From contig JAZRXK010000086.1 in assembly GCA_045600185.1 (NCBI GenBank), positions 1-61,684 on the forward strand: 61,684 bases of DNA, written 5' to 3'. This document shows positions 209 through 20,926 of this stretch, piece by piece (the stretch's first letter is position 1; every line of letters begins with the position of its first letter). The translations under genes were made by a program, and so were the position numbers. This DNA comes from Desulfocucumaceae bacterium. Lineage in GTDB: Bacteria; Bacillota; Desulfotomaculia; Desulfotomaculales; Desulfocucumaceae. The notes below the pieces were generated by a model. It searched no databases. It had not been told where the DNA came from and saw only the letters and a list, made by a program, of their open reading frames with translations.

Positions 209-241
209 AAAACCACCGGTTCAGCCGCAACCGGTGGTTTT
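209..241 (-). terminator. Rho-independent (bidirectional) terminator closing the phage-derived operon
   Basis: Perfect 12-bp stem AAAACCACCGGT / ACCGGTGGTTTT with a 9-nt loop, 6 nt past the stop of the last cluster gene (247). A/T runs sit on both sides. Confidence 0.6.
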
Positions 242-246
242 TGATC

Positions 247-498
247 CTAAATATTTAATTGAGCTAAAATATGCCGCACTTTCTCGGCAATGTGAGCAGT
301 TGATTCTTCCAGAGAACAATTATTGTAAAAAATTTTTCCCTGACCATAATCAACTATTTTTCTGCCCTGCCAGACCGGAAATCCATCCCGGCAGTCAATT
401 TGCGTGGGGATAATTTCTTTTTGGGCATAACGCCGGGCAGTATGCACTTCCTGAACACAGTGCAGGATTCCGCTTTGATCCCGATAAGCATAATTCAT
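247..498 (-). CDS. Hypothetical small protein (83 aa), last gene of the phage-derived cluster
   Basis: ATG at 498 with AGGAGG 8 nt upstream (ctttaagcAGGAGGctggttttATG). The longer 133-aa track ORF would overlap the upstream gene. No TM segment and no recognisable family. Confidence 0.45.
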   Translation of the reverse strand: MNYAYRDQSGILHCVQEVHTARRYAQKEIIPTQIDCRDGFPVWQGRKIVDYGQGKIFYNNCSLEESTAHIAEKVRHILAQLNI

Positions 499-514
499 AA
501 AACCAGCCTCCTGC

Positions 515-1543
515 TTAAAGCTCCCCATAATAAACCGAGCGGAATTTGCCCAAGGCAGCAGTTTGGGCCAGATCCAGAAAATTGATTCCGGCTCCGGCTC
601 CATCAGTACAGCCTCCACCCCGCCTTCCCCAAATTTCCGGGGCGGCATTATTGATTTGAATTATTTCATTGCCATACAAGCTGCTTGAAGAATGAGCTGG
701 ATAAAGCATTAAAGCCTTTAAATATTCCGGAACAGTTTCTGCTGCAGTCATATTTTTAAAAAGGCAGCTTCGGGAACTGTTGTCAGAAGAAGTAACAGCA
801 TCACTAATTTGCCAGATTCCATTCACATAATCCAATTTAAGACTTTCTGAATATCCGGGTTCCACAAATTCATTATCCGGATTTAAAGCCTGCCAATATA
901 ACGAATTGCTTGTCTGACTAACAGAATTCAGCACAGAATCAGCATTGGGAATAAATTGCAGCTCTCCACTGACTATTCTCAGCCCTCCCACCCATTCCGC
1001 AGCAATTCCAGCCAAATCAGTAATTCCTCCATCTGCCGCATGATTGTGGTTCCAGGTAACTGCTCCGCTTCCAGTCAGGGTTCGTCCGCTTGAACCTGCG
1101 GCTAAACCGAATTCAGCGGAATAATTATAGTCAGAGCCATTGTTACTGTTGCCGTGAGGAGCCGTAGAATGACTATAGGAATATAAAGCCAAAGCTCCCC
1201 ATAAGGCTGCCGGAGTCAAACCCCAAAGATTGCCTTTATTGCGGCAGGAATCAACTGCTGTTTCAAAACTGACCAAAGCAGGATCTTCCAGAGGTAAGCT
1301 GTAAGCCAAAGTGTCCTGAATAATATTGGGGTATTTGGAAATATAGATAGTATCTGTTTCAACACTATCCAGCAAAAAAGCCGGGTGAATATTATCAGAT
1401 AAATTTGAACAAAGATCCTGAATGGAACATTTTTCCCAGATTACCATAATTGAAGGTAAATCCCAATCGTCCAAAAGAACGGTTTCCGCTCCGCCGGTTA
1501 AAGCTTCCACTGCATTTTTTAAATCCTCAAAAGGCATAAGCAC
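515..1543 (-). CDS. Tail-fibre / receptor-binding protein with a C-type-lectin (FGE-sulfatase-like) type C-terminal domain
   Basis: 342 aa. Motifs ITDLAGIAAEWVGG and the C-terminal RRGGGCTDGAGAGINFLDLAQTAALGKFRSVY resemble CLec/FGE-fold phage receptor-binding domains. GAGGGG RBS before ATG 1543. Confidence 0.55.
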   Translation of the reverse strand: MLMPFEDLKNAVEALTGGAETVLLDDWDLPSIMVIWEKCSIQDLCSNLSDNIHPAFLLDSVETDTIYISKYPNIIQDTLAYSLPLEDPALVSFETAVDSCRNKGNLWGLTPAALWGALALYSYSHSTAPHGNSNNGSDYNYSAEFGLAAGSSGRTLTGSGAVTWNHNHAADGGITDLAGIAAEWVGGLRIVSGELQFIPNADSVLNSVSQTSNSLYWQALNPDNEFVEPGYSESLKLDYVNGIWQISDAVTSSDNSSRSCLFKNMTAAETVPEYLKALMLYPAHSSSSLYGNEIIQINNAAPEIWGRRGGGCTDGAGAGINFLDLAQTAALGKFRSVYYGEL

Positions 1544-1552
1544 CCCTCTTTT

Positions 1553-1720
1553 CTAAACCTTAAACCAGATTTTTTTCCTTTTTCCGCAGGCTTCTTTAGT
1601 TTTAGCCGCAATACATTCGACCAATTCCCGCTGTTCCGCCTGGCGATAGTCTGCCCGAAAATCAAAAGCGACTCGAAGTTCTGCTTCGAGTCGCTGAGCC
1701 GATTTTATTTTCAGATTCAT
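1553..1720 (-). CDS. Small phage protein (55 aa), not in the ORF track
   Basis: ATG 1720-1718 overlaps the upstream TGA (ATGA coupling). Translation is MNLKIKSAQRLEAELRVAFDFRADYRQAEQRELVECIAAKTKEACGKRKKIWFKV. It fills an otherwise empty gap in a compact operon. Confidence 0.4.
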   Translation of the reverse strand: MNLKIKSAQRLEAELRVAFDFRADYRQAEQRELVECIAAKTKEACGKRKKIWFKV

Positions 1721-1875
1721 AATTCCCACCACTGCCCTTCGGCATATTTATAACCAACCAGGCTGTCATCAAATTCAGCTAAAGGCACCAGGTTAGCCTC
1801 ATTCCGAGGCTCTGAAAAATCATTGATGGCCTTGCAGACCTGATTATCATCCAATTCAGCATAATAATACCGCAC
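1717..1875 (-). CDS. Small phage protein (52 aa), not in the ORF track
   Basis: GTG 1875-1873 lies 8 nt after AGGAGG. Translation is VRYYYAELDDNQVCKAINDFSEPRNEANLVPLAEFDDSLVGYKYAEGQWWEL. The stop overlaps the next start. Confidence 0.4.
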   Translation of the reverse strand: MRYYYAELDDNQVCKAINDFSEPRNEANLVPLAEFDDSLVGYKYAEGQWWEL

Positions 1876-1887
1876 AGGCTTCACCTC

Positions 1888-2280
1888 CTAATAAAACTCA
1901 ATAACCTGCCAGGAAAAAACATAGCTCATATGACCATAGCCACCTTCAATGTGCATGGAACTGGCTGTCAGGCTGTCCAGATAAGGCAAACGGCCATCAT
2001 AAGTGTCTTTGGGGATGGCACCTCCATTCAGAAAAACCAGGCATTTATCCGGATTAGTTAAAGCTGTGGAAAAATTAACAGTTGCTCCTCCGGTTCCATT
2101 CATGGTAGCTGTACCTCTTTGAATTCTTCTTACCAGGCTGATGCCGTTAGCCAAAAGATATTTTAGACCGGCAAACAAAGTAGCCGGACTGCCGGAAGCT
2201 GCGTCTGAGGAATTACCCAGTCCGGCGGCTATTTCGTCCAAAGTGGTTTTATCTGCAATATCAATACTTACTGTAGCCAA
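1888..2280 (-). CDS. Tail-fibre-region hypothetical protein (130 aa)
   Basis: TTG start 7 nt after AGGAGG. Position is distal to the baseplate genes. No recognisable family. Confidence 0.5.
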   Translation of the reverse strand: MATVSIDIADKTTLDEIAAGLGNSSDAASGSPATLFAGLKYLLANGISLVRRIQRGTATMNGTGGATVNFSTALTNPDKCLVFLNGGAIPKDTYDGRLPYLDSLTASSMHIEGGYGHMSYVFSWQVIEFY

Positions 2281-2292
2281 AAGTTTTCCTCC

Positions 2293-2637
2293 TTATTCGC
2301 CATTATCATAAGTGACTCGTAAAACTCCATTGACGATGGAAAAGCTTAAACCACTGTCAGCAACATTACCTTCAGCGGTCAGGCTGGCCAAATTCCCGGC
2401 TGTATATTGAGCGGGCTTGGAGGCTTTATCCTCACAAGCCTGTTTATAATAACGAAAATGCTGAATTTGAAACATGACCAGCTCTCGATTTTCATGAATT
2501 CCATCTTCCATATTATTTAAGTGGTCTTGATCAAGAGGAGTTCCCTCTTGAATTACAACATCCCCATCCATCAACAGGTCTTCCCAATATGTTGAATTAT
2601 ACAACAGAAATTCCCCTTTCTCTAAGCCTCCAGCCAA
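2293..2637 (-). CDS. Tail-fibre protein, N-terminal attachment-type motif (about 103-114 aa)
   Basis: Contains GTPLDQDHLNNMEDGI, similar to the G-T-P-L-x-A-x-x-L-N-x-M-E-x-G-I motif at the N-terminus of many Firmicute phage fibre proteins. A TTG at 2604 preceded by AAGGGG is an alternative start. Confidence 0.5.
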   Translation of the reverse strand: MAGGLEKGEFLLYNSTYWEDLLMDGDVVIQEGTPLDQDHLNNMEDGIHENRELVMFQIQHFRYYKQACEDKASKPAQYTAGNLASLTAEGNVADSGLSFSIVNGVLRVTYDNGE

Positions 2638-3254
2638 ATTCCCTGATATAAATAATTTTCGAGGGGCAGAAAAGCCAGGGTATAGGTTTTATTGGCTGCA
2701 AAAACCGGATCTTCCGAAGTCCAAATAACTGAATCCGGCACTGATACTTCCGGAGCTTCATCTCCGGTGGAAAACTGCAGCAAATATTCCGTACTTTGAT
2801 CCGCCGCAGCCGGAGCAAAACTCAAATTCACATAAACTATTTGGTTGGTAAATTTATACATAACATTAGGAGATAACTCAAAATCTATTTCCGTCGTTAC
2901 ACTATCTGTCAATAACAGATAACCTGATTCCGATCCCATGCTTAAAGCATGATCAACTTCCTGCAAATGGAATATCAGCCTTAGAGCCGCACTTTGACCA
3001 GCCGTTCGCACAATAGACAAATTTTGCTGTCCAGCCAGATCACCTTCGGAGTCATAAACCCGCACCCCGGTAATTACATTATCCGTTTCCAAAGCCGGAA
3101 GATTGATTAAAACAGTTAAAGCAGCCGCCTGCACAATTTTACTGTTAATCACTCCCCGATGCCAATTTCCGCCTGCCTGATACTGCACCTGAGCAATTTC
3201 CCGCTTCAAAGACTGCTGACGCTTGCTCAAAAAAACACCCTGCCAAAAACTCAT
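2622..3254 (-). CDS. Baseplate-distal / tail-fibre hypothetical protein (210 aa)
   Basis: The start shares 1 nt with the upstream stop (TGATG). Position is immediately after the gpI-like wedge gene. Confidence 0.5.
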   Translation of the reverse strand: MSFWQGVFLSKRQQSLKREIAQVQYQAGGNWHRGVINSKIVQAAALTVLINLPALETDNVITGVRVYDSEGDLAGQQNLSIVRTAGQSAALRLIFHLQEVDHALSMGSESGYLLLTDSVTTEIDFELSPNVMYKFTNQIVYVNLSFAPAAADQSTEYLLQFSTGDEAPEVSVPDSVIWTSEDPVFAANKTYTLAFLPLENYLYQGIWLEA

Positions 3255-3874
3255 CAGTTCACCCCCCGCTTGTTACCGCAAAATTTTTCTCCTGCCTCTA
3301 CTGTACCGCATAACAAAGGTTCCGATGTAAAGCAGCTTATTTCAGTTTGCAAATATTTAAGTTTGCTCAATCTGAAGTCATATCTGGTAGCTACTCCGGC
3401 CGGATGAATCAGGGGAATTTCGCCAAAATCAACCGGATCTCCCTCTTCATCCAGAGCATCAAAAGAAAAAGTCAAAGTTGCCGGAAAAGCCGGATCTTCT
3501 GAATAGTAAATTGTGATACCCGGACAAAGAGTCTGCAAACTGTTTACAAGCTGATAATAAGTGCAGGAGGAAGAATTCAGCAAAATCTTTCGCTGCAATA
3601 AAGTGCGGTACTTCTCGTCATTTAAAGCCGCACTGCCCGACCCAACTGAACGGAGCAGTTTGGCCGCTTCAATCCGGCTTAAAGCCACAATATCCCCAAT
3701 TCCATCCAGCTGCTGTCCGGTGGCCTGCTCCAAGTTGCGTTTATCCCGCAAATCCTGATAAGTCTGCCAGACCTCCTGAAGCTGTCGAGCCAAAGCTGCC
3801 AGCAAAGTTTCCAGGCGGGGCTTGGCTCGAAATTGACCGACAAGATCCTGATTCAGTTTCTCCTGATAATTCAT
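3254..3874 (-). CDS. Baseplate wedge protein, P2 gpI / Mu gp48 / XkdU-like
   Basis: 206 aa, directly downstream of the baseplate J gene with a 4-nt ATGA overlap. Size and position match the canonical J-I pair. Confidence 0.6.
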   Translation of the reverse strand: MNYQEKLNQDLVGQFRAKPRLETLLAALARQLQEVWQTYQDLRDKRNLEQATGQQLDGIGDIVALSRIEAAKLLRSVGSGSAALNDEKYRTLLQRKILLNSSSCTYYQLVNSLQTLCPGITIYYSEDPAFPATLTFSFDALDEEGDPVDFGEIPLIHPAGVATRYDFRLSKLKYLQTEISCFTSEPLLCGTVEAGEKFCGNKRGVN

Positions 3875-5346
3875 AAGCTCACCTGAATTCTGCCTGCGTC
3901 AGTCTGTGGTTTTTGTCGGGAAGTTAAATTGGCATAAGTTGCCGTAAAACTGGCATAATCAATCACGGCATTGGGATCGGAATTGATATACATGGTAATA
4001 GTTAAATTTTGCAGGCCGTTAATTTGCTGATACATTTCCGCCAGACATTTTTGTGGATTGACTCTGGAAGCCGGAGGCAGACTTCGAACATAGTTAATCA
4101 AAATATCCTTGACAGTCTGGACATAACCGGCACTTAAATCTTCATCAATAAACTGTTCCACCACAACCGAAAACCAGCAGTAAATATTTTGCGGGATCGT
4201 ATAATAAATAATAATTTCCTCCCCATATTTACCAGTCAAACTTATTGGATTTAAAGTTAATCCATCACTTTTTAAACCATAAGTATTGATTCCTCCAGCT
4301 TTGGTTTTCAAAATTTCCTGAGCAATTTCCAGAGCCGTTCCTCCCTCTACCACCGCTTCAATGCTGTGTGGCGGACGGCCTTCGGCATCAGCAAGACTGC
4401 TGCAATTTTCATAAACCCGAACACTTTTTACCCCCGAACAATTTTCCAGAATATTGCTTTCAATACTTTCTGTCATACAGGAAGACAAAGCGAAAATTTT
4501 ATCCAGATAAGATCGGCGTAATTCCGCATCACTTTCCTGCAATCGTCCGGCCAGATATTGCCCGGAATTACTGACCCGATTCAGCCCGCTGACCGCCGTA
4601 ACAATATTGCTGATGGTTCCGGCTGGCAAAATGATTTCTCCGTCTTCTTCACTGGCAAAGTTAATCATACTGGTTACTTCCACCGTAGTTAAATTTTCAG
4701 AAAGAGTTAAAGTATGACTGCTTTCCGGTTCTGCTGCCTGGATCAATAAGCAGGTATCATTTTCCACAGAAACCCTGAAATCTGCATTGGCTTCAATTAA
4801 AGCGGCCAGCCCAGCCAGAATTTCCCCAATGGAAGCGGAAGAGTCGCTGATATAGCTGTATAAAGTTTGATCCAAAGTTACATTATAAGCAGCCGAGTTT
4901 TGCAAAGCAGCAATACCCAGACTAACCTGATTAAAATTATTGCGGCTGATTAGAGAAGTTTGAGAAGCCAGAAAATAATTAACCGGATTGGTAGCTGAAG
5001 CCAATCGAGTACCGGCAGCTATTTCCGTTCCATCCAGACCGCTGCAATAAACCGGATAATAGGTTTTGGCTGCCGGCTGACGAACAACCCCGGCATATTG
5101 TGCCGCCCAATCCAGGTTTTGTCCTTCAGCCATGGAAGGATACATGGATTGATATACATTTTCCGCTACTTCCCATAATTCAGCAATTTTATCACCAAAG
5201 TTTGTCAGCAAAACATTCAGACAGCTTTGAGGATTTAGCCGGGTATTAAAGCCCAAACCTTCACTTAAATCCTGGTGCAGTTCCGTCAAAATTTCATCAA
5301 GTCTTTTTCGGACAAAGCCTCTGTCTGTTACTCCGTAATCAGCCAT
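3871..5346 (-). CDS. Baseplate J-like protein (P2 gpJ / Mu gp47 / XkdT family)
   Basis: About 491 aa. N-terminus MADYGVTDRGFVRKRLDEIL is typical of Baseplate_J proteins. ATG 5346 follows GGGGTGAAGGA. The track start at 5361 is a TTG overlapping the upstream gene. Confidence 0.75.
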   Translation of the reverse strand: MADYGVTDRGFVRKRLDEILTELHQDLSEGLGFNTRLNPQSCLNVLLTNFGDKIAELWEVAENVYQSMYPSMAEGQNLDWAAQYAGVVRQPAAKTYYPVYCSGLDGTEIAAGTRLASATNPVNYFLASQTSLISRNNFNQVSLGIAALQNSAAYNVTLDQTLYSYISDSSASIGEILAGLAALIEANADFRVSVENDTCLLIQAAEPESSHTLTLSENLTTVEVTSMINFASEEDGEIILPAGTISNIVTAVSGLNRVSNSGQYLAGRLQESDAELRRSYLDKIFALSSCMTESIESNILENCSGVKSVRVYENCSSLADAEGRPPHSIEAVVEGGTALEIAQEILKTKAGGINTYGLKSDGLTLNPISLTGKYGEEIIIYYTIPQNIYCWFSVVVEQFIDEDLSAGYVQTVKDILINYVRSLPPASRVNPQKCLAEMYQQINGLQNLTITMYINSDPNAVIDYASFTATYANLTSRQKPQTDAGRIQVSL

Positions 5347-5350
5347 TCCT

Positions 5351-5698
5351 TCACCCCGCAATCAGCAATTCTTCCTGCCAGATATGTTCTCCCACTTTAA
5401 TTTGCAATGCAATTTTCATTTGCCGATTTTTCCACTCCTTAACCTCCAAACTTACTTCTTCCACTTCTTCCATTTCCAGAACCGCCTGCCGCAAAACAGC
5501 TTTAATCCGGTTTGGATCGGGATTTTTCTTCAAAATTTCTCCATAATAATTCAAACCATAAGCGGGCATCAGCCGCCATTCAGCTTTAAACCAATTTAAA
5601 CGAATCCGAATTGCCTGACGAATACTGTCAATTATTTGCAGATCCCCTTGTTCCGTTAAAAATAAATCTCCAGTTTCCGTTAAAGCCAAATCCTGCAT
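5351..5698 (-). CDS. Baseplate wedge protein, gpW/gp25/XkdS-like
   Basis: 115 aa. The pattern DL...TGDL...QGDLQIIDSIRQAIRIRL..F..EW is typical of gp25-like baseplate proteins. It sits just upstream of baseplate J. Confidence 0.65.
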   Translation of the reverse strand: MQDLALTETGDLFLTEQGDLQIIDSIRQAIRIRLNWFKAEWRLMPAYGLNYYGEILKKNPDPNRIKAVLRQAVLEMEEVEEVSLEVKEWKNRQMKIALQIKVGEHIWQEELLIAG

Positions 5699-5725
5699 TT
5701 AGCCTTCCCCTCCCAACAAGCTGAT

Positions 5726-6262
5726 CTATTCCTGATTGTATTGGGCAATAATATCTTCAGTTGCTTTAATCTGGCCGTTAACTATCAAGTCTCCGGTAAT
5801 TTCCAGACCATTTGAAGAAATCTTAATGCGTTTGTTATGGGCTTCCAAAATCAAAGCCTGTTCCAAACAAGCTTCCGTCAATAATTCGGAAGGGTGCGAA
5901 AATAAGCCTGGAATGGCCAGAGCATTGGATAAATCAAAACGCAGTTCCAAGCCGGTTTCCTGCCCATAAAGCCAATAATCCAAAGCCTGTTCCGCCATAA
6001 TTAAAAGACAGCCATCTCCAGCTTGCACCGGAAACACCAGACTGATTTTCTGTCCCCAGCCTTGCGGAAAAAGAACCGGTACTCCATAAACAGGCGGATA
6101 GAGCAGGCGGTTGCCTCGTGAACCATTATTGGCCAAAGGCTGAACAGCAGCTAAGCCGGATTTGGGATCAAAATTCAGGATTTTACCCGGTAAGGCAGTA
6201 TGAATACCCTTGATGAAATCTTCCACCAGATTTTTGCATTGCTTCACAAATTCCTGTTCCAA
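5726..6262 (-). CDS. Baseplate central spike/hub protein (Mu gp45 / gpV / gp138-N-like)
   Basis: 178 aa from the TTG at 6262 (GGAGG RBS 6 nt upstream, 1 nt after the upstream TAA). The N-terminal 44 codons of the track ORF overlap the preceding gene and are rejected. Confidence 0.55.
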   Translation of the reverse strand: MEQEFVKQCKNLVEDFIKGIHTALPGKILNFDPKSGLAAVQPLANNGSRGNRLLYPPVYGVPVLFPQGWGQKISLVFPVQAGDGCLLIMAEQALDYWLYGQETGLELRFDLSNALAIPGLFSHPSELLTEACLEQALILEAHNKRIKISSNGLEITGDLIVNGQIKATEDIIAQYNQE

Positions 6263-6263
6263 C

Positions 6264-7109
6264 TTAAACCTCCAAAAGACAAGCTCGACAAAGCCAATCG
6301 GACTGATAATTATCTCCTTCAAACTGCAGGGAATAAATCCGAAAACAGCCCTGAATACTTTGACTTTCCAAACGAACATAATCGGACACATCAATGGCTC
6401 CGTTCAGAAAAAACTCCACTTCCCAACCCGGCAGATCATTTTCCCATTTATGCTGAGCTGCAAGCAAAATTTCTTTGGGTCTGCCCAGCAGACCAGTTTG
6501 ATTGTTCAAAATATAAGTTTTGTCCCACCGGGCTTCCGCAGGCTTTTTTATTTGCAGCACTCCGTTTAAGATTGACCAGGTAATTCCGCTGCAGGCACAA
6601 ATTTTATCCAAAGCTCTGCCCGCCAGACCAGTGTAACTGAAGCCCAAAGTTAAATCCTGATAAATTGCTCCGGGAGAAAAAAGCACGGCCAGATTCATTT
6701 GTCTGGCTATATCTTCAAGAATATGCCTGGTATTCACTGCCCCGCCATAAGCCAAAGAAAGCCAGGTATCCCGCAAAGCCCAACCACCGTCAATAACTTC
6801 CAGAGTGGTTCTGCGATCCGCTCCGTCCAGTTCCGTCCGAATAAAGCTGATATTGCCTTCAAAAATAACCGGCAGATGCAAACCATAGCCCGCCTGCAAA
6901 ATTACATAACAATCCCGTTGTTTCAAAATTCCCAGATGACTGGAATTCAGGTTCCACAAGCAGATTTTAGCCGTATTTTCGGTTTCCAGATCGGCCTTCT
7001 GAACGGAAAAACGAATATGCAAAGCATAAGGAGAATTCTGGCCGCAACTGAACTGCTTAACTCCGCTTTGATAAACCGTCAATAAATATTGCCGGTCAAA
7101 GTTTTGCAT
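6264..7109 (-). CDS. Baseplate hub protein (Mu gp44 / P2 gpD / XkdQ-like)
   Basis: 281 aa, with position and size as in Mu-like and PBSX-like baseplate modules. Confidence 0.55.
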   Translation of the reverse strand: MQNFDRQYLLTVYQSGVKQFSCGQNSPYALHIRFSVQKADLETENTAKICLWNLNSSHLGILKQRDCYVILQAGYGLHLPVIFEGNISFIRTELDGADRRTTLEVIDGGWALRDTWLSLAYGGAVNTRHILEDIARQMNLAVLFSPGAIYQDLTLGFSYTGLAGRALDKICACSGITWSILNGVLQIKKPAEARWDKTYILNNQTGLLGRPKEILLAAQHKWENDLPGWEVEFFLNGAIDVSDYVRLESQSIQGCFRIYSLQFEGDNYQSDWLCRACLLEV

Positions 7110-12997: not shown

Positions 12998-14056
12998 CTA
13001 AATTCCCAAAGCAATCAGCAAAGACAGGGGATAATAAATAATAACTCCGGCTGTTCTGGCCTCACAAGGCACCACAATTTCCAGGCCGCGGGGCTGAATT
13101 GGATATTGATAAAAAGGCAGCGGATTTTCCAAAGTCAGCTTGCGAGGATCTTTTTTAAACAGCAAAGCTACCGCCTGTTCAGAGCCGGAGCTGACATTTG
13201 TTCCCCCGTAAGGATTGATTTCCGAATCAGAATTCAGTTCCGAAGCCGGCACAATTTCCTTTAAATAAGGAGCATTTTCCAACACAAAACGCTTAATGCT
13301 ATAACCGGTTCCTTGCAGTTGACGGGTAGAAATATCCATAAACACATCTGAAGGCAGAACCAAAGTATCCGGCCGTTCTACATTTTTGGTATTTCGAGCC
13401 ACCGCCGCCTGCATTCCGTTAATATCCGCCAAAATTTGAGCTGCTGTTTTATCCTGCCATTTAGTGCTGCTGTCCGAACCATTGTCCGGAATGGTATATA
13501 AAGGAATATCATTATTAGCCGATAAAATTCCCATTAAGCCATTTTCCGCATCTCCAGCCCAGGCAATTTTATTGTTCAAATAGTCTATTGCATAACGAGC
13601 AGCTTCCGCCTTGGCCAGATCCAGGGATTTACCAGCCATGCGGGAAGCCCGCATTTCCTGCACCGAATAACCGTAGCTGTTGCCAATGGATTTAATATTG
13701 GCGGTAAAGGGCTGCCCTTTAGCATCAGCTCGTGGTAAATCAGTAGCATAATTATCAATAATTTTGGCCATTCCGGTTTTATCATAGCTATAATAGGTAA
13801 CGCTTTCTGCTCCGGCATTAACCTCATTAGAAACCGGCAAAATCTGTAAAGCTGTAAATTCCGGATATTCCACATTATAGGATTCAGCTTTCACATAATC
13901 CAATTCTCTGGCAAAAAAGACCGAAGCATCTTCGGCACTATCAAAACGCAGGCTTTGACTTTCCTTCAAGGCCGCTGAAACCGTAGAACCCATTAAAGCC
14001 TGATAATCAGCCTGATTAAAATGAGCTGAAGGCATTTTAGCATTATAATTTCCCAT
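12998..14056 (-). CDS. Major capsid protein (DUF2184-like family)
   Basis: 352 aa, after the protease/scaffold and decoration genes. The N-terminal region ...FFARELDYVKAESYNVEYPEFTA... is typical of this capsid family. Strong GGAAGGGGGAA RBS. Confidence 0.75.
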   Translation of the reverse strand: MGNYNAKMPSAHFNQADYQALMGSTVSAALKESQSLRFDSAEDASVFFARELDYVKAESYNVEYPEFTALQILPVSNEVNAGAESVTYYSYDKTGMAKIIDNYATDLPRADAKGQPFTANIKSIGNSYGYSVQEMRASRMAGKSLDLAKAEAARYAIDYLNNKIAWAGDAENGLMGILSANNDIPLYTIPDNGSDSSTKWQDKTAAQILADINGMQAAVARNTKNVERPDTLVLPSDVFMDISTRQLQGTGYSIKRFVLENAPYLKEIVPASELNSDSEINPYGGTNVSSGSEQAVALLFKKDPRKLTLENPLPFYQYPIQPRGLEIVVPCEARTAGVIIYYPLSLLIALGI

Positions 14057-14082: not shown

Positions 14083-14955
14083 TCAGCCGTTATAAGTTAC
14101 TGTTTTTTGCAAAATGGTTTGAGCTGCTCCTTCTTTACAGGCATTAAGCGTCACCACATAATCTCCGGCAGCCGTTTCAAAGTGCAAAGCTTTTCTGTCT
14201 GCTACCGCAGTATTGCCCACAACTAACTGCAAATAAGCCGAATTATCTTCTGTTACCGGCAAAGTTTGAATACAGGTAGTTTCTCCGGATTTCTCAATCA
14301 TACAAAAACAACTGTCGCAGGTTTGTCGTTTAAAAGAAATTTGCAGCCAGGGAACTTCCGTCAAATTTTCCGTATAGGTTTCCAGAGGCAAAGCCTTAGC
14401 ATAATCAGCTGCCGCCAGAAAGTCTATTTTCAAATCAGTCAGCAAAGTCGAATTAGTCTGGACATTTTGATAATGTAATTCAATCGGAGCTATTAAACCG
14501 GAACTTTTACTGCCAAGGTAACGGGCATTAAGCCGGATTTTCCAGGCTTCCGCTGTGTCCGCAGCCAAAGTAAAAAGTCCGGCATTAGTGCCACTGGTAA
14601 TTAAATAAACATCCTTACCATAAGCAGGACTGATTCCGGACTTTATTCTGACCCAAACCCGGCCACTGCTGATTACTCCAACCGCAGCTTTGGCCGCCAA
14701 TTTTAATTCCCCATTCAAATCCAGAGGAGTAGTGCCATTTTTTGCAATTACCCCTTCAAAATCAACCAGACCGGAGGAACTATCCGGAAGCTTGACTCCC
14801 ACTCCCGGCACCGTTCCTTTGACCACTCCCATGCCCAATTTCAAAGCACTTTCTTCTTCATTGATTCGGCTTTCCCGCACATAAGGACTCAAATCCCACA
14901 AACCACCGGCTACTCCCTGCCCGGAGGCATAATTATAACTGCTTTGCACTGCCAT
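14083..14955 (-). CDS. Capsid decoration / cement-like protein with a C-terminal extension
   Basis: About 290 aa. ATG 14955 lies 6 nt after GAAAGGGTGA and overlaps the upstream TAA (TAATG). The N-terminal roughly 120 aa resemble DUF2190-type head proteins. Confidence 0.45.
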   Translation of the reverse strand: MAVQSSYNYASGQGVAGGLWDLSPYVRESRINEEESALKLGMGVVKGTVPGVGVKLPDSSSGLVDFEGVIAKNGTTPLDLNGELKLAAKAAVGVISSGRVWVRIKSGISPAYGKDVYLITSGTNAGLFTLAADTAEAWKIRLNARYLGSKSSGLIAPIELHYQNVQTNSTLLTDLKIDFLAAADYAKALPLETYTENLTEVPWLQISFKRQTCDSCFCMIEKSGETTCIQTLPVTEDNSAYLQLVVGNTAVADRKALHFETAAGDYVVTLNACKEGAAQTILQKTVTYNG

Positions 14956-16079
14956 TAGCAATCACCCTTTCTTCTGGCAATCATATTTTGTCGGGCTTTT
15001 TCAGCTCCGGTTAATCGACTTCTCCAATACCCATCACCATTGAAAACCTGTTTCCGCTGGCCATTAACTCCAGATAATTCTTCCATAACCAAACTAAACG
15101 CCGCTTCAATAAATTCCGGGCTGCGTCCGGCCAGATTCAGCTTGGGTCGAGCTTTGGCCAGAACTGCCTTTTGAGCTTCCAAAAGATCCATACTTTCCAA
15201 ACCCGGCAAATTTAACTTATGAGCTAATTTGGCCAGATCCGGCATTTCCTGACTATCCTGCTTTAAACCGCGACAGCTTTGTACTTCCCCATTCTGGGAA
15301 CTTTCACTTAATTTAAGAGCCAAACCCACAATAACCCGATCCAAATCCTGCAAAGCCCCTTCCAAAAGCCCAATAGTTTCTTCCGAACTTAAATTGCTTT
15401 GCTGCAAGCTTTCCAGTTTTTGCAGATAATCGGCATACAGATCTTCTGCAAGCCCCCAATCACCTTCCATCTTTTCTGAATTTTTTTCTTTTTCCGGCTC
15501 CGGCCTTGTGTCCCCGGCCGACTTGCTTTTGCTCAGCACTCCAATTCCCCCTTCAGATTTATGGTCTATATTTAAACGAGCCGCAGAACCAGCTCTGGCC
15601 CATTTCACCAAAGCCAAATGATTGATTTCGATATTGCGTTGTATGGCATCATAAGGATGCCCCTGCCAGATTCCCGGACATTCTTCCAGGCTCAGACTAT
15701 AGCCCAGGGACAACTCCCGCAGGCCTGAACTCTGCAGGGCATTGGTATCATGGATAATAATTTTTGCCCGCACTTTCTCTCCGTCCGGAATTCCCGGAGA
15801 TAACACTGTCCCGACAATTTCCTCCGGAATATTATTTTTATCCACTTCTCCAGCCGCATGAGACAAGACAATGGGCTTACCTTCATAAGAAGCCAGACTG
15901 GCCTGGGCAAAGACTTCCTCCGGCAAACGCAGTTCCCGGCGAATACTTCCGTCCGGGTTAGCATATTCAAAAATTCCGGTCATAGTAACCACCGGTTGAT
16001 CTACCAGATAGCCTTCTTCCGTAAAATAAGTTGAAAGCAGCGGCAAATGATCAGTACGGAATAATTTATCGGACTGCAA
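14955..16079 (-). CDS. Prohead protease/scaffold protein (XkdF / DUF2213-like)
   Basis: 374 aa. The N-terminal domain ...TGIFEYANPDGSIRRELRLPEEVF...LSLGYS... resembles DUF2213. The C-terminal half is charged and helical, which is scaffold-like. Confidence 0.65.
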   Translation of the reverse strand: MQSDKLFRTDHLPLLSTYFTEEGYLVDQPVVTMTGIFEYANPDGSIRRELRLPEEVFAQASLASYEGKPIVLSHAAGEVDKNNIPEEIVGTVLSPGIPDGEKVRAKIIIHDTNALQSSGLRELSLGYSLSLEECPGIWQGHPYDAIQRNIEINHLALVKWARAGSAARLNIDHKSEGGIGVLSKSKSAGDTRPEPEKEKNSEKMEGDWGLAEDLYADYLQKLESLQQSNLSSEETIGLLEGALQDLDRVIVGLALKLSESSQNGEVQSCRGLKQDSQEMPDLAKLAHKLNLPGLESMDLLEAQKAVLAKARPKLNLAGRSPEFIEAAFSLVMEELSGVNGQRKQVFNGDGYWRSRLTGAEKARQNMIARRKGDC

Positions 16080-16094
16080 AAAAACACCTCCATT

Positions 16095-16958
16095 CTAAAT
16101 TCTAACAACGGCCTGAACCTCCAGGTAGGGTTTAGCTTCATTTACAACCACCGTATCCCAGACACTATTGCCTTCAAATCCCTGCAACGGTAAAATACCT
16201 GCCCAATAGATTTCCGGTTGAGGCAAAACATAAAAAACTTCTTCTCCATAAACAAGTTCTCCCGTTGCACTATTATATGGAGTTGTTATGTCCTGCCCCC
16301 AATAATAGCTAATAAGCCCCACCCGCCGAATCAACTCGCCACTGATTGCCCGATATTCATCAGCAATAAATTCTCCATCTACTTCAACCGACCTTAACAG
16401 TAAAGAGCCATCTGGTTCCAAAACACCCCTCGACAAATAGCTGTTCAGAATAAAGCTGTCTGTATTAGCTCGAATTTGCAGAACCCTGTTCGCCACCAAA
16501 AACACATAACTTTCCGAAGTAGCTGCCGCCGGTTCTGCAACAGCCGAAAATCTATCAGCCGCCAAACAGGTTCCCTGGGGGGAACTGCTTAACTGAAAAG
16601 TTAAATTACTAACCGATTTATTCCGGTTAATTAACAAATTATATTCCAGAGTGCCGGTAAAATAAGGAAATTGCGAATCTTGTTCCCAACCTGGAGCTGA
16701 TAAATAAATTCGCTCCCCGGCAGTTGTTTCGGTCAAGGTAAAGCTGTAAAATTGATCCGACCCACAGCGAAAATAGCAGGTTCCTTCTTCCGTTCCATCG
16801 CAAATATAAACAAAATTATATTCTCTACTGGGCACTATTTGAGTTCTGCCAAGTACATTAAATTTAATTAAAGAAAGATCAACGGTGCCGGAAAGTTCCG
16901 GGCTAATCCCACTGCAAGATGCCGTCTTATATTTTTTCAAAAGCTTTGGCCACTGCAT
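16095..16958 (-). CDS. Hypothetical phage protein (287 aa) between portal and protease
   Basis: ATG 16958 with an AGAGGTG RBS 11 nt after the upstream stop. The longer track ORF start overlaps the preceding gene. No recognisable family. Confidence 0.45.
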   Translation of the reverse strand: MQWPKLLKKYKTASCSGISPELSGTVDLSLIKFNVLGRTQIVPSREYNFVYICDGTEEGTCYFRCGSDQFYSFTLTETTAGERIYLSAPGWEQDSQFPYFTGTLEYNLLINRNKSVSNLTFQLSSSPQGTCLAADRFSAVAEPAAATSESYVFLVANRVLQIRANTDSFILNSYLSRGVLEPDGSLLLRSVEVDGEFIADEYRAISGELIRRVGLISYYWGQDITTPYNSATGELVYGEEVFYVLPQPEIYWAGILPLQGFEGNSVWDTVVVNEAKPYLEVQAVVRI

Positions 16959-16969
16959 GACAACACCTC

Positions 16970-17542
16970 TTAAACAGCAGTCCAGACTGCATATAAAGTC
17001 AGACTGGCCATAAGAGCCAAATTTGCCGACAAAGCATAAGCAGTCCCGCTTCCGTCCTCTGCGGTATTCCAACCACTCAAAGTATAACCTTCATAAGTCA
17101 AGCCTTCTCCGTTTGCCAAAGTAACCCAATCACCATACAAATAAACTCTGGCATCTTCCACCGTACCACTGCCTCCGTTAGCCGCATAAGTAATCGTAAA
17201 GGCATTGGCTAAAGGCAGTGCCACTATAATTCCATCCTTAATATTTATTTCCCAGGCCTCTCCATTACCAAAAACCGGCATGGTATCGCCATAGTATTGC
17301 GACTGGGGAAAACTAACCGCAATATCTCCGGAACTTGCGGTAGTAAATTGCAAATAAGCTTGAAAAGGCAATTCCGGATAAGCAGTAATATTCAAGCTGG
17401 ACAAGTTTCTGCCTCGATATTCACTTCGATCAGCCAGAGTCAAATCTTCTCCGGAAATAATTTTAACTCTTTTCACCTTTTTTTCTCCGAGAGCATAAGA
17501 AAGAAGTCTGCTGTGCAAAACCCTCACCTCAATTCTTTCCAA
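16970..17542 (-). CDS. Phage protein with a C-terminal Listeria-Bacteroides (Flg_new / InlB B-repeat) type domain
   Basis: 190 aa. FTITYAANGGSGTVEDARVYLYGDWVTLANGEGLTYEGYTLSGWNTAEDGSGTAYALSANLALMASLTLYAVW matches the Flg_new repeat pattern. An alternative TTG start lies at 17518. Confidence 0.55.
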   Translation of the reverse strand: MERIEVRVLHSRLLSYALGEKKVKRVKIISGEDLTLADRSEYRGRNLSSLNITAYPELPFQAYLQFTTASSGDIAVSFPQSQYYGDTMPVFGNGEAWEINIKDGIIVALPLANAFTITYAANGGSGTVEDARVYLYGDWVTLANGEGLTYEGYTLSGWNTAEDGSGTAYALSANLALMASLTLYAVWTAV

Positions 17543-17733
17543 TACGCCAACTGATTTTCAGCATCCCAGGCCAAACGCCAGATGGAAACATCTGACAAAA
17601 CCAGAATTTCCGAGCCTAAAGCGTCGGTAGTCGGAACCAAAGATACTTCACTGCGGTCATCTACCTGATATTCGCTCAAAAACTTCCTTTGAGCATTAGG
17701 TTGATTGCTTACCCAGATTTTAACAACAGCCAT
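17524..17733 (-). CDS. Hypothetical small phage protein (69 aa)
   Basis: Compact ORF directly after the portal gene. No recognisable family. Confidence 0.4.
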   Translation of the reverse strand: MAVVKIWVSNQPNAQRKFLSEYQVDDRSEVSLVPTTDALGSEILVLSDVSIWRLAWDAENQLAYWKELR

Positions 17734-17751: not shown

Positions 17752-18990
17752 TTAGTCCAATAAACTTTCCGCTGTCAAAACTTCCTTATTTTGCAAACCC
17801 CGGCGAATTTCTGCTGGGGTTAAAGCCTGCAATTCCGCATAAAGCCGCACGGTTTCGGCTCTGGATAAAGCCGCCGCTGCCCTTTCTTTTTCCAGTTGAG
17901 CAGTTTCCAATTCGCTCAGGCTCCACAAAGGATTAAATTTAAACTTTATCTGCGGTTCCTGAACTATGATCCCAATTAGATCCAGCAAACGGCGTAAATT
18001 TCCTTTCAGCATGGTTTTTTGAATTTGTTCCACATAATTATAATAATTTTCCAAATCACTTTCCCCGGTTGCATTTTGACCGGCTGGAGAACGCCCAAAT
18101 AAAACAGTTTGGGGAATATGACAAACGGCTGCCAGTAAATTGCAACTACTGTTAATAATCTCTGCTACCCCGGCAAAAGAGAAGGATTTAAAATCATAAT
18201 CTTCTCCTTCACTGTCAATGGCCACGCTGTTTAAAATCCCTCTTGCTGCATCAATAACCTGCAAGCGTTTCAAAACATTTTCTTCTCCGGATTCGGAAGC
18301 CAGAACCCTGGCCAAATCTTTCATTTTATAAACCGGCTGCACTGAGCGTTCCAAAAGCCGAACTCCCAGACTGTGAGCAATGGAAACATCTTTTAATTCA
18401 TTTTTTATGCGATCATATTCAGGAATCCCCCAATAACGAAACTGACTGTTCAAGCTTAACTCCGGCAAAACTCCATTGCGAAAAATCAGGCAGCGGCTTT
18501 GATGTACTCGAAAGCTGCTGCCATTTCGCTGAATGGTTAAAAATTCTGAATTATCCGGCCATTCCAAATTCACCTGGACGGCCGAGCGTTCAAAAACCAG
18601 CAATTCTTCCAGATTTTGCAAAGAATTTTCCTGCAAGGCGTCTTCAAGAGTGCCGCCATCTTCGGCCAAAATTAACATTAAAGAGCCACCGAAAAGTCTG
18701 GCCCATTTTAAAGCCTGACTGAATTTATTTTCCCAATCCAAATGCTCCAGAACAGCTTCAATCTTTGCTTTCTGACTATTAACAATAATTTCAAATCCAT
18801 GCCGCACTGCTTCTTCTGCGGGCAAATCAATAATTTTGGCCAATAATCCCCCGGTTTCATAATGTTGGGTCAGCTGCAAATCTGAAGTAAAAAGTTCCCC
18901 CCAATAATTATAAGCCGTGGAATTATCCTGAATTGTCCCAAAGCGATTTAAAACATTAACATAACCATCTTCCCGAAACAAGCACATCAC
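17752..18990 (-). CDS. Portal protein (DUF1073 / HI1409-like family)
   Basis: 412 aa, immediately downstream of the large terminase. The N-terminal region ...VLNRFGT..DNSTAYNY.....LTQHYETGGLLAKIIDLPAEEAVRHGFEI resembles this portal family. Confidence 0.75.
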   Translation of the reverse strand: MMCLFREDGYVNVLNRFGTIQDNSTAYNYWGELFTSDLQLTQHYETGGLLAKIIDLPAEEAVRHGFEIIVNSQKAKIEAVLEHLDWENKFSQALKWARLFGGSLMLILAEDGGTLEDALQENSLQNLEELLVFERSAVQVNLEWPDNSEFLTIQRNGSSFRVHQSRCLIFRNGVLPELSLNSQFRYWGIPEYDRIKNELKDVSIAHSLGVRLLERSVQPVYKMKDLARVLASESGEENVLKRLQVIDAARGILNSVAIDSEGEDYDFKSFSFAGVAEIINSSCNLLAAVCHIPQTVLFGRSPAGQNATGESDLENYYNYVEQIQKTMLKGNLRRLLDLIGIIVQEPQIKFKFNPLWSLSELETAQLEKERAAAALSRAETVRLYAELQALTPAEIRRGLQNKEVLTAESLLD

Positions 18991-18998
18991 TTCCCCAA

Positions 18999-20426
18999 TT
19001 AAGAAATCAGATTGGCAAAATCAAATTTCAGCCATTCGTTATAATAAATGTTCGCCTGAGTTAAGGCATCCACCTGATCATCATGGTTTCCATGCGGAAA
19101 AACCGCCAATTCTTCCACCAAATCTCCGACCCAGGCAAAGCGGGAAAAATCCGGCAAATAAACATTTCCGGCCTCCACCGCCGCCGAAACCGCCTGAGCC
19201 CTGGCTGTTTTTCCTCCGGCTGGCTGAACTGGAACAATACCGCTGATTTCATTTTTTAAAACATCAATAACTGCACTGCCATTGGCTTTATCTTCCACCA
19301 GCTTTCTGGCTGTCTGCGGCCAACGAGAACTTAACAAACGCATGGCACTCAGGGTTTCCGAAAAGCTCATTTTACCCCGCACCTGATCCAGCAGATAACG
19401 ATTAGCACCTTTTCTTGCCCAAACCTGACCTACCACAAAATCTGCGTTGGCAGTATTTTTAAAAGCACAATCCCAGGACTGGATATAATCCAGCAAATTT
19501 CCCGGCAAAGTCTGCCAATATTTCCACCAGTTCCGCTTAAACAAACCACCGGCCAAAGGCTGCGGCTTTTGCTGATATAAAGCCGACCAATCATAATAGC
19601 CAATGGTTTGCCGAATAGAAGCCAACCGCTGACAGTTAAATTTGCTTGGCCATAAAGCTTCACCCGGTTGGCGTAAATCATAAGCTTCCGGCCATTCTTC
19701 GCAAATAGCCGGCAAAGAAATCACTGTCCATTTTTCCTGATTTTCAGAACGCATCTGTTCCAAAAGCCGACCGGCCAGATCATCTTCATGCCAACGAGTC
19801 AGGGTTAGTAAAATAGCCCCCTCCCCCTCCAGCCGAGTGTAAAGGGTAGAAGTGAACCATTCCCAAAGCCTGTCCCGAAAGGCCACAGAATTGGCCTCAT
19901 CCCGGTTCTTCACCGGATCATCAATAATAATAAAATCGGCTCCCATGCCGGTAATTCCGCCTCCAACTCCGGCACAGCGATAAAAGCCCTTATGTTTGAC
20001 AATTTCAAAGAAATTGTCTTTTTTGACAAAAACTCCTTCTCCCCGACCGGAAGCCAGGCGACATGCTGGAAATAACTGTTTAAAGCTTTCTCCTTCCAGA
20101 ATCCGCCGCACATCTCTGGCCAAATAACCGGCCAATTCAGCATTATAGGAGCAGGCAATAATTCCGCTGTTTGGAAATCGTCCCAAAAGATAAGCTGGAA
20201 GTTTACGGCTGACCAGTTCAGATTTGCCATGCCGTGGAGCCGTAAAAATCATCAGCCGCCGCAAATCTCTTTCCAGCCAACGCTCCAGGTAATCACAAAT
20301 CAAACTGTGATGCCAATTCATTTGATAACTTTTGTCCACATACAAAACAAATTGCCGAAAACAACGCCGAGCCAGTTCCTGCTGCAAATAAGGCTGCAAA
20401 AATTTTTGAAGCTGTTCCTTATTCAT
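18999..20426 (-). CDS. terL: Terminase large subunit
   Basis: 475 aa. Walker A-like FTAPRHGKSE, Walker B-like IIIDDP, and a C-terminal nuclease region with HDDQVDA. The start overlaps the small-subunit stop (GGATGAATAA). Confidence 0.85.
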   Translation of the reverse strand: MNKEQLQKFLQPYLQQELARRCFRQFVLYVDKSYQMNWHHSLICDYLERWLERDLRRLMIFTAPRHGKSELVSRKLPAYLLGRFPNSGIIACSYNAELAGYLARDVRRILEGESFKQLFPACRLASGRGEGVFVKKDNFFEIVKHKGFYRCAGVGGGITGMGADFIIIDDPVKNRDEANSVAFRDRLWEWFTSTLYTRLEGEGAILLTLTRWHEDDLAGRLLEQMRSENQEKWTVISLPAICEEWPEAYDLRQPGEALWPSKFNCQRLASIRQTIGYYDWSALYQQKPQPLAGGLFKRNWWKYWQTLPGNLLDYIQSWDCAFKNTANADFVVGQVWARKGANRYLLDQVRGKMSFSETLSAMRLLSSRWPQTARKLVEDKANGSAVIDVLKNEISGIVPVQPAGGKTARAQAVSAAVEAGNVYLPDFSRFAWVGDLVEELAVFPHGNHDDQVDALTQANIYYNEWLKFDFANLIS

Positions 20427-20733
20427 CCTGAGCCAAAAGCAAGTCTTTCAATTCCTTTTGAGTCATTTTAGCCAAAGTTGCTTCAATTAAATCTTTAGCC
20501 ATATTTTCATTAGTATTCCATTTTTCCGGAGCATGGGTTTCCAGCCAAAATTTTAAGGCTGTAAAATTAGGCCCAACTTCCTTGCAGACTCGCTTTTCCT
20601 CCACTCCATCTTTCCAGACAATTTCTTCTTTTTGATAGCCAAGAGCCAATTTAAGCACAGCCCTTTCTACCAATTCTTTGGAACTTGAATCTTTGTTTGA
20701 TACATTCGCTTTTTCCGACCGGTGTTCCACCAA
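20419..20733 (-). CDS. Terminase small subunit candidate
   Basis: 104 aa, first gene of the cluster, translationally coupled to terL. The exact start is uncertain because the AGGAGG at about 20750 is 20 nt from the TTG. Confidence 0.45.
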   Translation of the reverse strand: MVEHRSEKANVSNKDSSSKELVERAVLKLALGYQKEEIVWKDGVEEKRVCKEVGPNFTALKFWLETHAPEKWNTNENMAKDLIEATLAKMTQKELKDLLLAQDE

Positions 20734-20793
20734 ATTAACTAATACTTTAATTTCCTCCTTTATCCTGATGTATTGGCAGCAATAAAATAAAAG

Positions 20794-20822
20794 AACCGCT
20801 TTCTTCTGAAAGCGGTTTTTTC
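20794..20822 (-). terminator. Rho-independent terminator of the aminotransferase gene (bidirectional shape)
   Basis: AACCGCTTTC ttct GAAAGCGGTT 10-bp stem flanked by A- and T-runs. Only about 35 nt separate it from the RBS of the first phage-derived gene. Confidence 0.65.
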
Positions 20823-20926
20823 CACTATAGTAAGCATAACAAAAAAAAATTAAATTGTAAACAGCAGTAAAATTTCAGCAAAATTTTATTTTTTCGCTGA
20901 ATAAACAATTCATTTAAAACTAAACT

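Follow-up and report, generated by a model that had tools for sequence, protein, structure and literature searches.

A vertically inherited head and contractile-tail gene cluster in Desulfocucumaceae as a candidate domesticated particle-producing locus

What keeps a full set of phage head and tail genes intact in a bacterial genome when the other parts of a phage do not stand beside them? The question is raised by a contig from a Desulfocucumaceae bacterium (JAZRXK010000086.1, GenBank assembly GCA_045600185.1), which was analysed over its 61,684 nucleotides (nt) and is called the window below; it is one entire contig, and the assembly holds no sequence to the left of position 1. The list of open reading frames (ORFs) places 31 contiguous intact morphogenesis genes at 247-20733, all on the minus strand. 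An earlier note had read this cluster either as a domesticated locus, likened to gene transfer agents (GTAs) and to PBSX, or as a recently truncated prophage. We put the probability at roughly 0.55 that selection maintains here a functional, domesticated locus for particle production, of the GTA or defective-phage-particle kind. The best explanation offered by the sequences would be a cluster that was anciently fixed, vertically inherited and retained by the host after losing its lysogeny, replication, diversity-generating retroelement (DGR) and lysis modules.

Annotation with PHROG and Pfam profiles confirmed families of the head, of packaging and of the contractile tail. By PHROG annotation, the genes run in the order small terminase (TerS), large terminase (TerL), portal, protease, cement or decoration protein, major capsid protein (MCP), head-tail adaptors and tail terminator, and continue with sheath, tube and tail chaperone, a protein that occupies the place of the tape measure, then the baseplate hub, the gp25-, gpJ- and gpI-like proteins and lastly the fibre-region genes. 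The ~20.5 kb from TerS to the fibres are co-directional and gap-free, as the earlier note had described them, the only apparent gap (1543-1888) being filled by two small ORFs of 55 amino acids (aa; 1553-1720) and 52 aa (1717-1875), both conserved in a relative. All cluster genes are full length compared with their orthologs in loci L001, L007 or L002 of relatives, and no pseudogenising mutation was seen. The same alignments bore out the absence of internal frameshifts and premature stops, with a programmed -1 site in the tail chaperone as the sole frame change.

No regulator, holin or endolysin was detected by PHROG or Pfam in 209-20930 or elsewhere in the contig, and annotation of the 31 genes and of the 40-kb flank revealed no replication, integration/excision or lysogeny-control genes, as would be expected of a GTA. 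Early, replication and integrase modules are indeed lacking beside the aminotransferase gene, and the right flank consists of core genes only (aminotransferase, M16 peptidase, atp operon, UDP-GlcNAc 2-epimerase, SpoIID, SpoIVB, HtpG, MiaA, MutL and MutS). There is no tRNA gene in the window, and no att-like repeat of at least 10 nt links the two borders. The integrase, repressor, replication and lysis modules and att repeats of an intact temperate prophage were thus not found.

The same cluster was recovered from relatives. TerL had a single match in the genome collection (92% aa identity), in the Desulfocucumaceae metagenome-assembled genome (MAG) JAZRVI (Bacillota, Clostridia). At the nucleotide level, this MAG is 77% identical to the window over host genes (window 24464-22285), 84% over the aminotransferase (22164-20940) and 78-80% over the cluster (20898-3873), so that the second species has the same locus on the aminotransferase side. 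A second JAZRVI contig (L002) matches window 3876-248 at 76%, and the homology runs precisely up to the stop codon of the last gene, an 83-aa ORF. Past this ORF, L002 continues with a tnpB fragment and then with host genes (SSF transporter, DUF815, oligoendopeptidase F (PepF), Asp23, PBP); neither integrase nor lysis genes were found in L002 beyond this insertion sequence (IS) fragment, where the earlier note had left room for them. A third genome, the MAG JAKSSS, is ~94% identical to JAZRVI within the cluster and is available in two pieces, one running from an S8 protease gene through the leader to TerS (L166) and one from the cement gene to the Dit-like gene (L008). In both MAGs a DUF4357 gene and/or the gene of a 1347-aa S8 protease, which are not in the window, lie between aminotransferase and leader; because these genes intervene, the conserved block starts at window 20898 and not at the aminotransferase. 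In this intervening region (L001 4490-9555 and L166 1-3995), the S8 subtilase carries GLUG and InlB-B-repeat (Flg_new_2) domains and is co-oriented with the cluster.

Exact-protein look-ups found no record of the window's fibre protein or TerL, megablast of the whole cluster against deposited phages gave no match, and TerL peptides had no match in a metagenome scan. A scan of viral contigs yielded nothing with TerL alone, and matches only with a three-sequence alignment. The homolog P0021, on a 2.4-Mb contig, was set aside as a solitary host gene that is uninformative.

Divergence and constraint within the cluster resemble those of its neighbours. Pooled over 15 proximal cluster genes, the comparison of window and MAG gave 0.86 synonymous substitutions per site (dS) and a ratio of nonsynonymous to synonymous substitutions (dN/dS) of 0.14, and four adjacent host genes gave dS 0.77-1.17 and dN/dS 0.06-0.27; the mid and distal cluster genes have dN/dS 0.09-0.22. 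Between the two MAGs (L007/L008), eleven cluster genes gave dS 0.186 and dN/dS 0.13, and the neighbouring S8 protease gene also gave dS 0.186. Neutral decay is excluded because ~20 kb contain no stop codon or frameshift in either lineage at ~0.9 synonymous changes per site. Moreover, in relative synonymous codon usage the cluster and the host genes of the window correlate at r = 0.925 (two halves of the host set: 0.962), and GC content at third codon positions is 0.40 in the cluster and 0.41 in host genes. Vertical inheritance and purifying selection, as known for GTAs, are thus both seen, on three genomes.

From these alignments, the truncation is older than the split of the window and MAG lineages. 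Of the two branches that the earlier note had left, domestication gains support, and a recently truncated prophage is excluded by the truncation and both boundaries being shared at dS ~0.9, by the same aminotransferase, by host-like dS and by purifying selection in a second species. Independent integrations at one att site were also rejected, given that there is no integrase and no att repeat, and that boundaries are identical and dS and codon usage host-like.

The modules that would have been lost can be seen in complete relatives. IMG/VR holds many of them, collinear with the window between portal and fibre (MCP identity 57-77%). Upstream of TerS, contig 3300045988_055348 (TerL 51%, MCP 63%) carries a replisome organiser, a DnaC-like loader, SSB and a ParB-like nuclease, and in Faecalibacterium phage FP_Brigit the terminase is preceded by a replication module, repressors and a serine recombinase. 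At the other end, the closest relative (UViG_2887281495_000001) has an ortholog of the window's 342-aa fibre protein, followed by bAvd, reverse transcriptase (RT) and an Amidase_2/SPOR endolysin. A fibre homolog followed by bAvd, template repeat (TR) and RT is also found in L004-L006 and L167, and in the prophages L004-L006 the RT is followed by a holin and a CHAP/lysozyme endolysin, then by host genes. The last 115 nt of the L004 fibre gene and a downstream copy (10912-11026 and 11608-11722) differ only at template adenines, the signature of an active DGR, and are flanked by bAvd and an RVT_1 RT.

No homolog of these early, DGR and lysis genes was found in the window, L001, L002 or L007. The window and MAG loci yielded no TR, Avd or RT, nor a second copy of the sequence equivalent to the variable region, and of a DGR the target-gene homolog alone remains. 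As the earlier note had reported, the cluster ends with an 83-aa protein, a hairpin and the start of tnpB, and no holin or endolysin; this ORF alone occupies, in the Desulfocucumaceae lineage, the position of the phage DGR and lysis cassette. No close relative carries the cluster within a full prophage, and those that do are distant (MCP at most 77%, TerL at most 59% identity). The features at the distal border are the following.

247-498, minus strand: lineage-specific 83-aa soluble protein at the tail of the cluster, last gene of the conserved block (ortholog in L002)
209-241, no strand assigned: palindromic terminator hairpin at the operon end (from the sequence)
1-212, minus strand: IS605-family left end with promoter and the first 18 tnpB codons (56->3, MANKAIKYRIYPAAEQSV), outside the cluster, marking the distal boundary and the contig end

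The L002 ortholog of the 83-aa protein is 72% identical (dN 0.18, dS 1.29, dN/dS ~0.14). The protein has no homolog in any fetched phage locus and no Pfam, PHROG or NCBIfam match. The hairpin at 209-241 is not conserved in L002.

If the cluster is retained, how might it be controlled? A near-invariant leader precedes TerS in three genomes that are ~80% identical; its elements, and the hairpin at the edge of the conserved block, are listed here.

20874-20901, minus strand: hairpin 1, a terminator-like site at the proximal border of the block that the genomes share
20833-20861, minus strand: promoter-like element (TTTACA, 17 nt, extended -10 TGtTATGCT), with hexamers and spacer length conserved in three genomes
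20794-20817, minus strand: promoter-proximal intrinsic terminator (A-tract, 10-bp stem, T-run), immediately before the ribosome-binding site of TerS (GGAGG)

The homology of the window to L001 and L166 begins at 20898, in hairpin 1, despite a different upstream gene, and this hairpin probably terminates the upstream gene. Within the promoter-like element, whose motif is unique in the window, the 17-nt spacer diverges in sequence and is constant in length across the three genomes. The extended -10 is followed by the invariant ACTATAGTGG, which contains a -10-like TATAGT, and in the terminator the stem is invariant and the loop variable.

The earlier note had taken the last hairpin (20794-20822 in its reading) for the terminator of the aminotransferase gene. 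The hairpin is real, but this assignment was rejected, since hairpin and promoter are conserved behind the S8 protease gene in the two other genomes; because the conserved promoter precedes it and it travels with the cluster, it is the cluster's own leader terminator. Nothing in the window matched an Rfam family at the gathering threshold, the leader and the IS end giving chance-level matches only, so that the leader belongs to no known riboswitch or sRNA family. The invariant leader motif had no match in a metagenome scan. Internal terminators were also considered as a sign of processive antitermination and dropped, 32 against 24 +/- 4.4 in shuffles being unconvincing.

Late operons under antitermination control have this layout, with a promoter reading straight into an intrinsic terminator. 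The GTA cluster of Caulobacter is controlled by an anti-terminator (PMC11150451). No antitermination factor is encoded within the window's cluster, and control would therefore come from elsewhere in the genome.

The head and packaging genes lie directly behind this leader.

20419-20733, minus strand: small terminase of 104 aa without N-terminal helix-turn-helix (HTH) (phrog_309, match limited to profile positions 197-255)
18999-20426, minus strand: large terminase with intact ATPase and nuclease motifs (phrog_38, E = 1.9e-121)
17752-18990, minus strand: portal (phrog_15528, phrog_146; dN/dS 0.075)
16095-17733, minus strand: three lineage-specific head-module ORFs of 69 aa (17524-17733), 190 aa (16970-17542) and ~288 aa (16095-16961) (no PHROG matches; orthologs in L001/L007, dN/dS 0.11-0.29)
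14955-16079, minus strand: head maturation protease with a scaffold-like C-terminal part (phrog_530; ortholog PF09979)
14083-14961, minus strand: capsid cement or minor capsid protein (phrog_563; ortholog Phage_cement and XM1_gp53)
12998-14056, minus strand: major capsid protein (phrog_264; ortholog Major_capside PF09950)
11296-12982, minus strand: four head-completion, adaptor and tail-terminator genes (103, 115, 136 and 196 aa) (phrog_302, phrog_939, phrog_7975; ortholog E217_gp27)

TerS is short in all three genomes (104 aa in the window, 115 and 114 aa in the MAGs). Its alignment with the TerS proteins of FP_Brigit and L108 (164-165 aa) begins only at residue ~50 of the latter, and an HTH_23 domain, found at residues 20-47 in phage TerS homologs only, falls in the segment that is missing from the window TerS. 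Among 64 TerS homologs from a scan of 1.84 billion representative proteins, most are 140-200 aa long and their match begins at about residue 60-75. Likewise, gp1 of the alphaproteobacterial agent RcGTA begins at its oligomerisation domain, and loss of the N-terminal DNA-binding domain has been proposed as the defining trait of GTA-type TerS (Sherlock et al., PMC6854486). The window TerS shows this loss of the sequence-specific N-terminal domain. An AlphaFold2 model of TerS made without an alignment reached a mean predicted local distance difference test (pLDDT) score of 57, too poor to add information. Upstream of the presumed TerS start (region 20730-20790), in-frame codons are conserved with synonymous changes, and the window has an 11-codon mini-ORF in another frame that ends at an overlapping TAA.

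The motifs of TerL (Walker A GKS67-69, DD169-170, D319 and D449/450/453) are invariant with those of FP_Brigit TerL (dN/dS 0.065). The MCP has dN/dS 0.05 between window and MAG and 0.006 in the shallow comparison, and its PDB matches include 8hdt, of the same 8hd* series as the Pam3 sheath chain. The 190-aa head-module protein (16970-17542) has a Listeria-Bacteroides repeat (Flg_new domain), and the small lineage-specific ORFs had no matches in NCBIfam, Pfam or PHROGs.

Behind the head genes, the tail, baseplate and fibre genes complete the cluster.

9872-11278, minus strand: tail sheath with an extra N-terminal insertion (phrog_205; ortholog E217_gp31_N; PDB 8hdr, Pam3 sheath)
9440-9853, minus strand: tail tube (phrog_280; dN/dS 0.078)
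8796-9424, minus strand: tail assembly chaperone pair (phrog_1613, phrog_31474; ortholog Phage_TAC_15)
8012-8854, minus strand: shortened tape measure of at most 280 aa (by position; its C-terminal 100 aa are homologous to the end of the 630-aa L010 tape measure)
5351-8007, minus strand: baseplate core, made up of a Dit-like protein (7429-8007), a Pam3_gp18-like protein (7111-7419), the hub (6264-7109), a protein with a spike/needle N-domain (5726-6394 at most) and a gp25-like sheath initiator (5351-5698) (phrog_817, 349, 196, 120; PF18352; ortholog Pfam Dit_like, Pam3_gp18 and Sheath_initiator; dN/dS 0.09-0.13)
3254-5361, minus strand: baseplate wedge, gpJ-like (3871-5361) and gpI-like (3254-3874) (phrog_6, phrog_587; ortholog Phage_Wedge1)
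1553-3254, minus strand: five small fibre-region ORFs (210, 114, 130, 52 and 55 aa) (phrog_7177, phrog_9010)
515-1543, minus strand: receptor-binding fibre protein of 342 aa, homolog of DGR targets (phrog_2889; many homologs carry PF03781)

In the chaperone pair, a canonical programmed -1 frameshift has its slippery site GTTTTTTTGGGAAA at 9038-9051, and the window, L007 and L008 share the heptamer. The tape measure has 280, 241 and 240 aa in the three genomes, these three proteins being the sole members found among 5.8 billion, and 630 aa (L010) and 1335 aa (L004) in phage relatives; the sequences can be aligned over the C-terminal ~100 aa only, of which the last ~60 are strongly conserved. 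As a rule, each tape-measure residue accounts for ~0.15 nm of tail, and the 240-280 aa predict a tail of ~35-45 nm, where the 630-aa tape measure of relatives would give ~95 nm.

The small fibre-region ORFs are conserved in L002 and partly in L167. The former variable region of the fibre protein (…EIWGRRGGGCTDGAGAGINFLD…) does not differ between the window and the MAG, and the C-terminus is conserved between the species; by its sequence, the fibre protein appears to be a former DGR target whose variable region is now fixed. The sheath is ~100 aa longer than in phage relatives, owing to an N-terminal insertion with two CBM_5_12-like repeats. This insertion and the 190-aa Flg_new head protein may be surface-binding decorations.

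Taken together, these genes suggest how such a locus could work. A sigma-A-type promoter would run into the terminator a few nt downstream, and the operon would stay silent until an antiterminator-like factor from elsewhere allows read-through. Procapsids would be filled by TerL and a TerS without the sequence-reading HTH, so that packaging could begin on any cellular DNA, and heads would be joined to contractile tails kept short by a tape measure of ~40% of the ancestral size. The fibre would be a frozen former DGR target, and release would depend on lysis functions encoded elsewhere in the genome. We infer that particles are made, that packaging is random, that antitermination controls the operon, that lysis is provided in trans and that gene transfer is the selected benefit. 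That the locus is specifically a GTA is a narrower claim, which we rate as somewhat less likely than not. The same rating applies to the proposal that a myovirus of the Pam3/E217 type was independently domesticated into a contractile-tailed GTA in spore-forming Clostridia (Desulfocucumaceae), which would be previously undescribed.

Several points weigh against domestication for a function. The cluster was found in three genomes only, two of them closely related MAGs. The tape measure is the fastest-evolving gene (39-45% identity, dN/dS 0.21-0.29), and its shortness could be a defect rather than an adaptation. The start of TerS is ambiguous, the conserved GGAGG lying ~20 nt from the first canonical start codon (TTG/GTG). 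The sequence gives no hint of a reduced head, the capsid protein being 77% identical to that of 50-kb phages, and the single contigs examined contained neither a lysis gene nor a trans regulator. Moreover, vertically inherited defective prophages under purifying selection are reported to be common and not always to make particles (Bobay et al. 2014, cited through PMC10538166).

Transposition has also reached the relatives' clusters, which contain IS605-family elements, and the window copy has none inside. In JAZRVI, an IS sits at the TTAT of the overlap between gpJ stop and gpI start (L007 14874-15111), where contig 31 ends; the part from gpI to the 83-aa ORF is on contig 16, behind feoB and a ~430-bp IS-derived remnant resembling a miniature inverted-repeat transposable element (L002 6158-6590). 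This split reflects either a genuine rearrangement or a mis-join caused by repeats. JAKSSS has a complete tnpB and Y1 tnpA element behind the Dit-like gene (L008 7992-9765). The insertions are recent, because their sites differ between two genomes that are 94% identical, and polar effects may recently have inactivated the relatives' copies.

Domestication could also have served another end, namely killing competitors, with packaged DNA incidental, as in a PBSX-type 'phibacin' or a head-retaining Gram-positive tailocin. We regard this as unlikely. In its favour, the contractile tail, the full baseplate and the receptor-binding fibre are under purifying selection, PBSX is the only well-studied domesticated Bacillota particle with a head and a contractile tail, and clostridial R-type tailocin prophages often keep all their structural genes (PMC10538166). 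However, the head and packaging genes are the most constrained of all (MCP 0.05 and 0.006, TerL 0.065, portal 0.075), which is unexpected if the tail alone mattered, and an arms race should keep or diversify the receptor-binding region, yet the DGR is gone and the two species have conserved what was once the variable region.

More doubtful still is a selfish virus in parts, either split, with its regulatory, replication and lysis genes elsewhere, or acting as a supplier of capsids and tails to a satellite. The leader terminator does imply a late regulator acting in trans, IS605-family activity around and inside the cluster could have caused a rearrangement, and single contigs were what could be inspected in each genome. 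Against it, TerS is without the DNA-recognition domain that specific packaging of a phage genome needs, codon usage is fully host-like, and boundaries and flanks are common to species at dS ~0.9, so that any split would be ancient. Finally, that the cluster is an inert, unexpressed, truncated prophage remnant still awaiting decay is very improbable: the lack of regulator and lysis gene, the terminator right after the sole promoter and the IS insertions tolerated in relatives speak for it, but ~20 kb at dS ~0.9 without stop or frameshift in two lineages, dN/dS of ~0.13 both deep and recent, and conservation of the programmed frameshift site and the leader speak against it.

Some further observations concern the ends and the host part of the window. 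A strong promoter lies at 137-109, within the IS605-family end. Beside this tnpB promoter, an 84-nt element (129-212) is 97.6% identical to L002 12200-12283, whereas the DNA around it reaches only ~76%; the MAG copy is found by itself behind the SSF transporter gene, and the element is probably an IS605-family left end or a solo remnant of one. A 60-nt dispersed repeat at window 61193-61252 is 95-97% identical to L002 531-590 and 16415-16474, and the motif 'atgattataacac' of 103-120 recurs at the window's right end, so that IS-type repeats may form both ends of the contig. Among host genes, a DEAD-box/DSHCT (Ski2-like) helicase at 55941-58235 is present as two adjacent ORFs (234 aa and 519 aa) ~30 nt apart, perhaps through a frameshift, perhaps because the gene is truly split, and the ORFs at 33189-35081 (630 aa) and 52538-54835 (765 aa) have no Pfam match.

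To our knowledge, the experimentally known GTAs and GTA-like particles are a handful of independent domestications, and PBSX is the sole well-studied case in Bacillota. A second, unrelated candidate with a contractile tail would test whether HTH loss, a short tail ruler and terminator gating are general rules of domestication. The proposed mechanism predicts a leader transcript of ~35-45 nt that is extended on induction, tails of ~35-45 nm and even coverage of the host chromosome in particle DNA. The relatives allow a comparison of before and after, since full phages keep an active DGR and a lysis cassette where the Desulfocucumaceae lineage has the 83-aa gene; if the GTA reading is true, this lineage discarded the DGR that its viral ancestors used to retarget their fibres.

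How does the cluster compare with known systems? By the Pfam hits of its orthologs and PDB matches 8hdr and 8hdt, the module belongs among the simple myophages of the Pam3/E217/XM1 type. Pam3, E217, XM1 and the IMG/VR contigs IMGVR_UViG_2887281495_000001 and 3300045988_055348 have the same protein families and the same order from portal to fibre, the IMG/VR prophages reaching at most 77% identity in MCP and 49% in the sheath. Unlike the window, these relatives are complete viruses of ~35-60 kb with replication genes, an HTH in TerS, a tape measure of at least 630 aa, an active DGR and an endolysin. Of the deposited phage genomes, FP_Brigit comes closest in TerL (51.5% identity) and has a TerS of the same family, but it is a full temperate phage and the rest of its structural module is unrelated.

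PBSX encodes its own repressor xre, the late sigma-like xpf and the lysis cassette xhlA, xhlB, xlyA within its cluster, and has a long tape measure and tail. The window resembles it as a chromosome-fixed set of terminase, head and contractile-tail genes in Bacillota that is incapable of viral replication. In contrast to PBSX, the window contains no xre/xpf-type regulators and no lysis genes of the xhlA-xhlB-xlyA type, and Pfam found no Xkd or Yqb families among its proteins or their orthologs, whereas the distant prophage L004 has YQBQ and DUF2577. In the earlier label 'GTA / PBSX-like', the likeness to PBSX is one of analogy, not homology; we read the cluster as a probable, independently derived addition to the chromosome-fixed phage-particle loci that is homologous to neither RcGTA nor PBSX. 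An R-type tailocin consists of the tail only, and in the window TerS, TerL, portal, protease and MCP are intact and are the most constrained genes of the cluster.

The alphaproteobacterial agents RcGTA and CcGTA differ from the window's cluster in several ways. RcGTA is HK97/siphovirus-like and non-contractile, whereas the window module is of the Pam3/E217/XM1 type with sheath and baseplate and has no sequence-family relationship to it, its matches being to PF09950, E217_gp27, E217_gp31_N, Pam3_gp18, Dit_like, Sheath_initiator and the sheath and baseplate PHROGs. The host phylum differs (Bacillota for the window), a reduced head is not evident in the window, no GafA/GafYZ or CtrA-type regulator was identified in it, and its terminator stands in the leader, before the first gene. 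The likenesses are a chromosome-fixed, structural-only cluster of head, packaging and tail genes that is vertically inherited and under purifying selection, a TerS without N-terminal DNA-binding domain (PMC6854486), no regulator or lysis gene within the cluster, a short tape measure and tail, and, in CcGTA, terminators that need bypass (PMC11150451). If the window's cluster is a GTA, a TerS without HTH, a short tape measure and tail, externalised lysis and regulation and a terminator-gated operon would be a case of convergence with the alphaproteobacterial GTAs.

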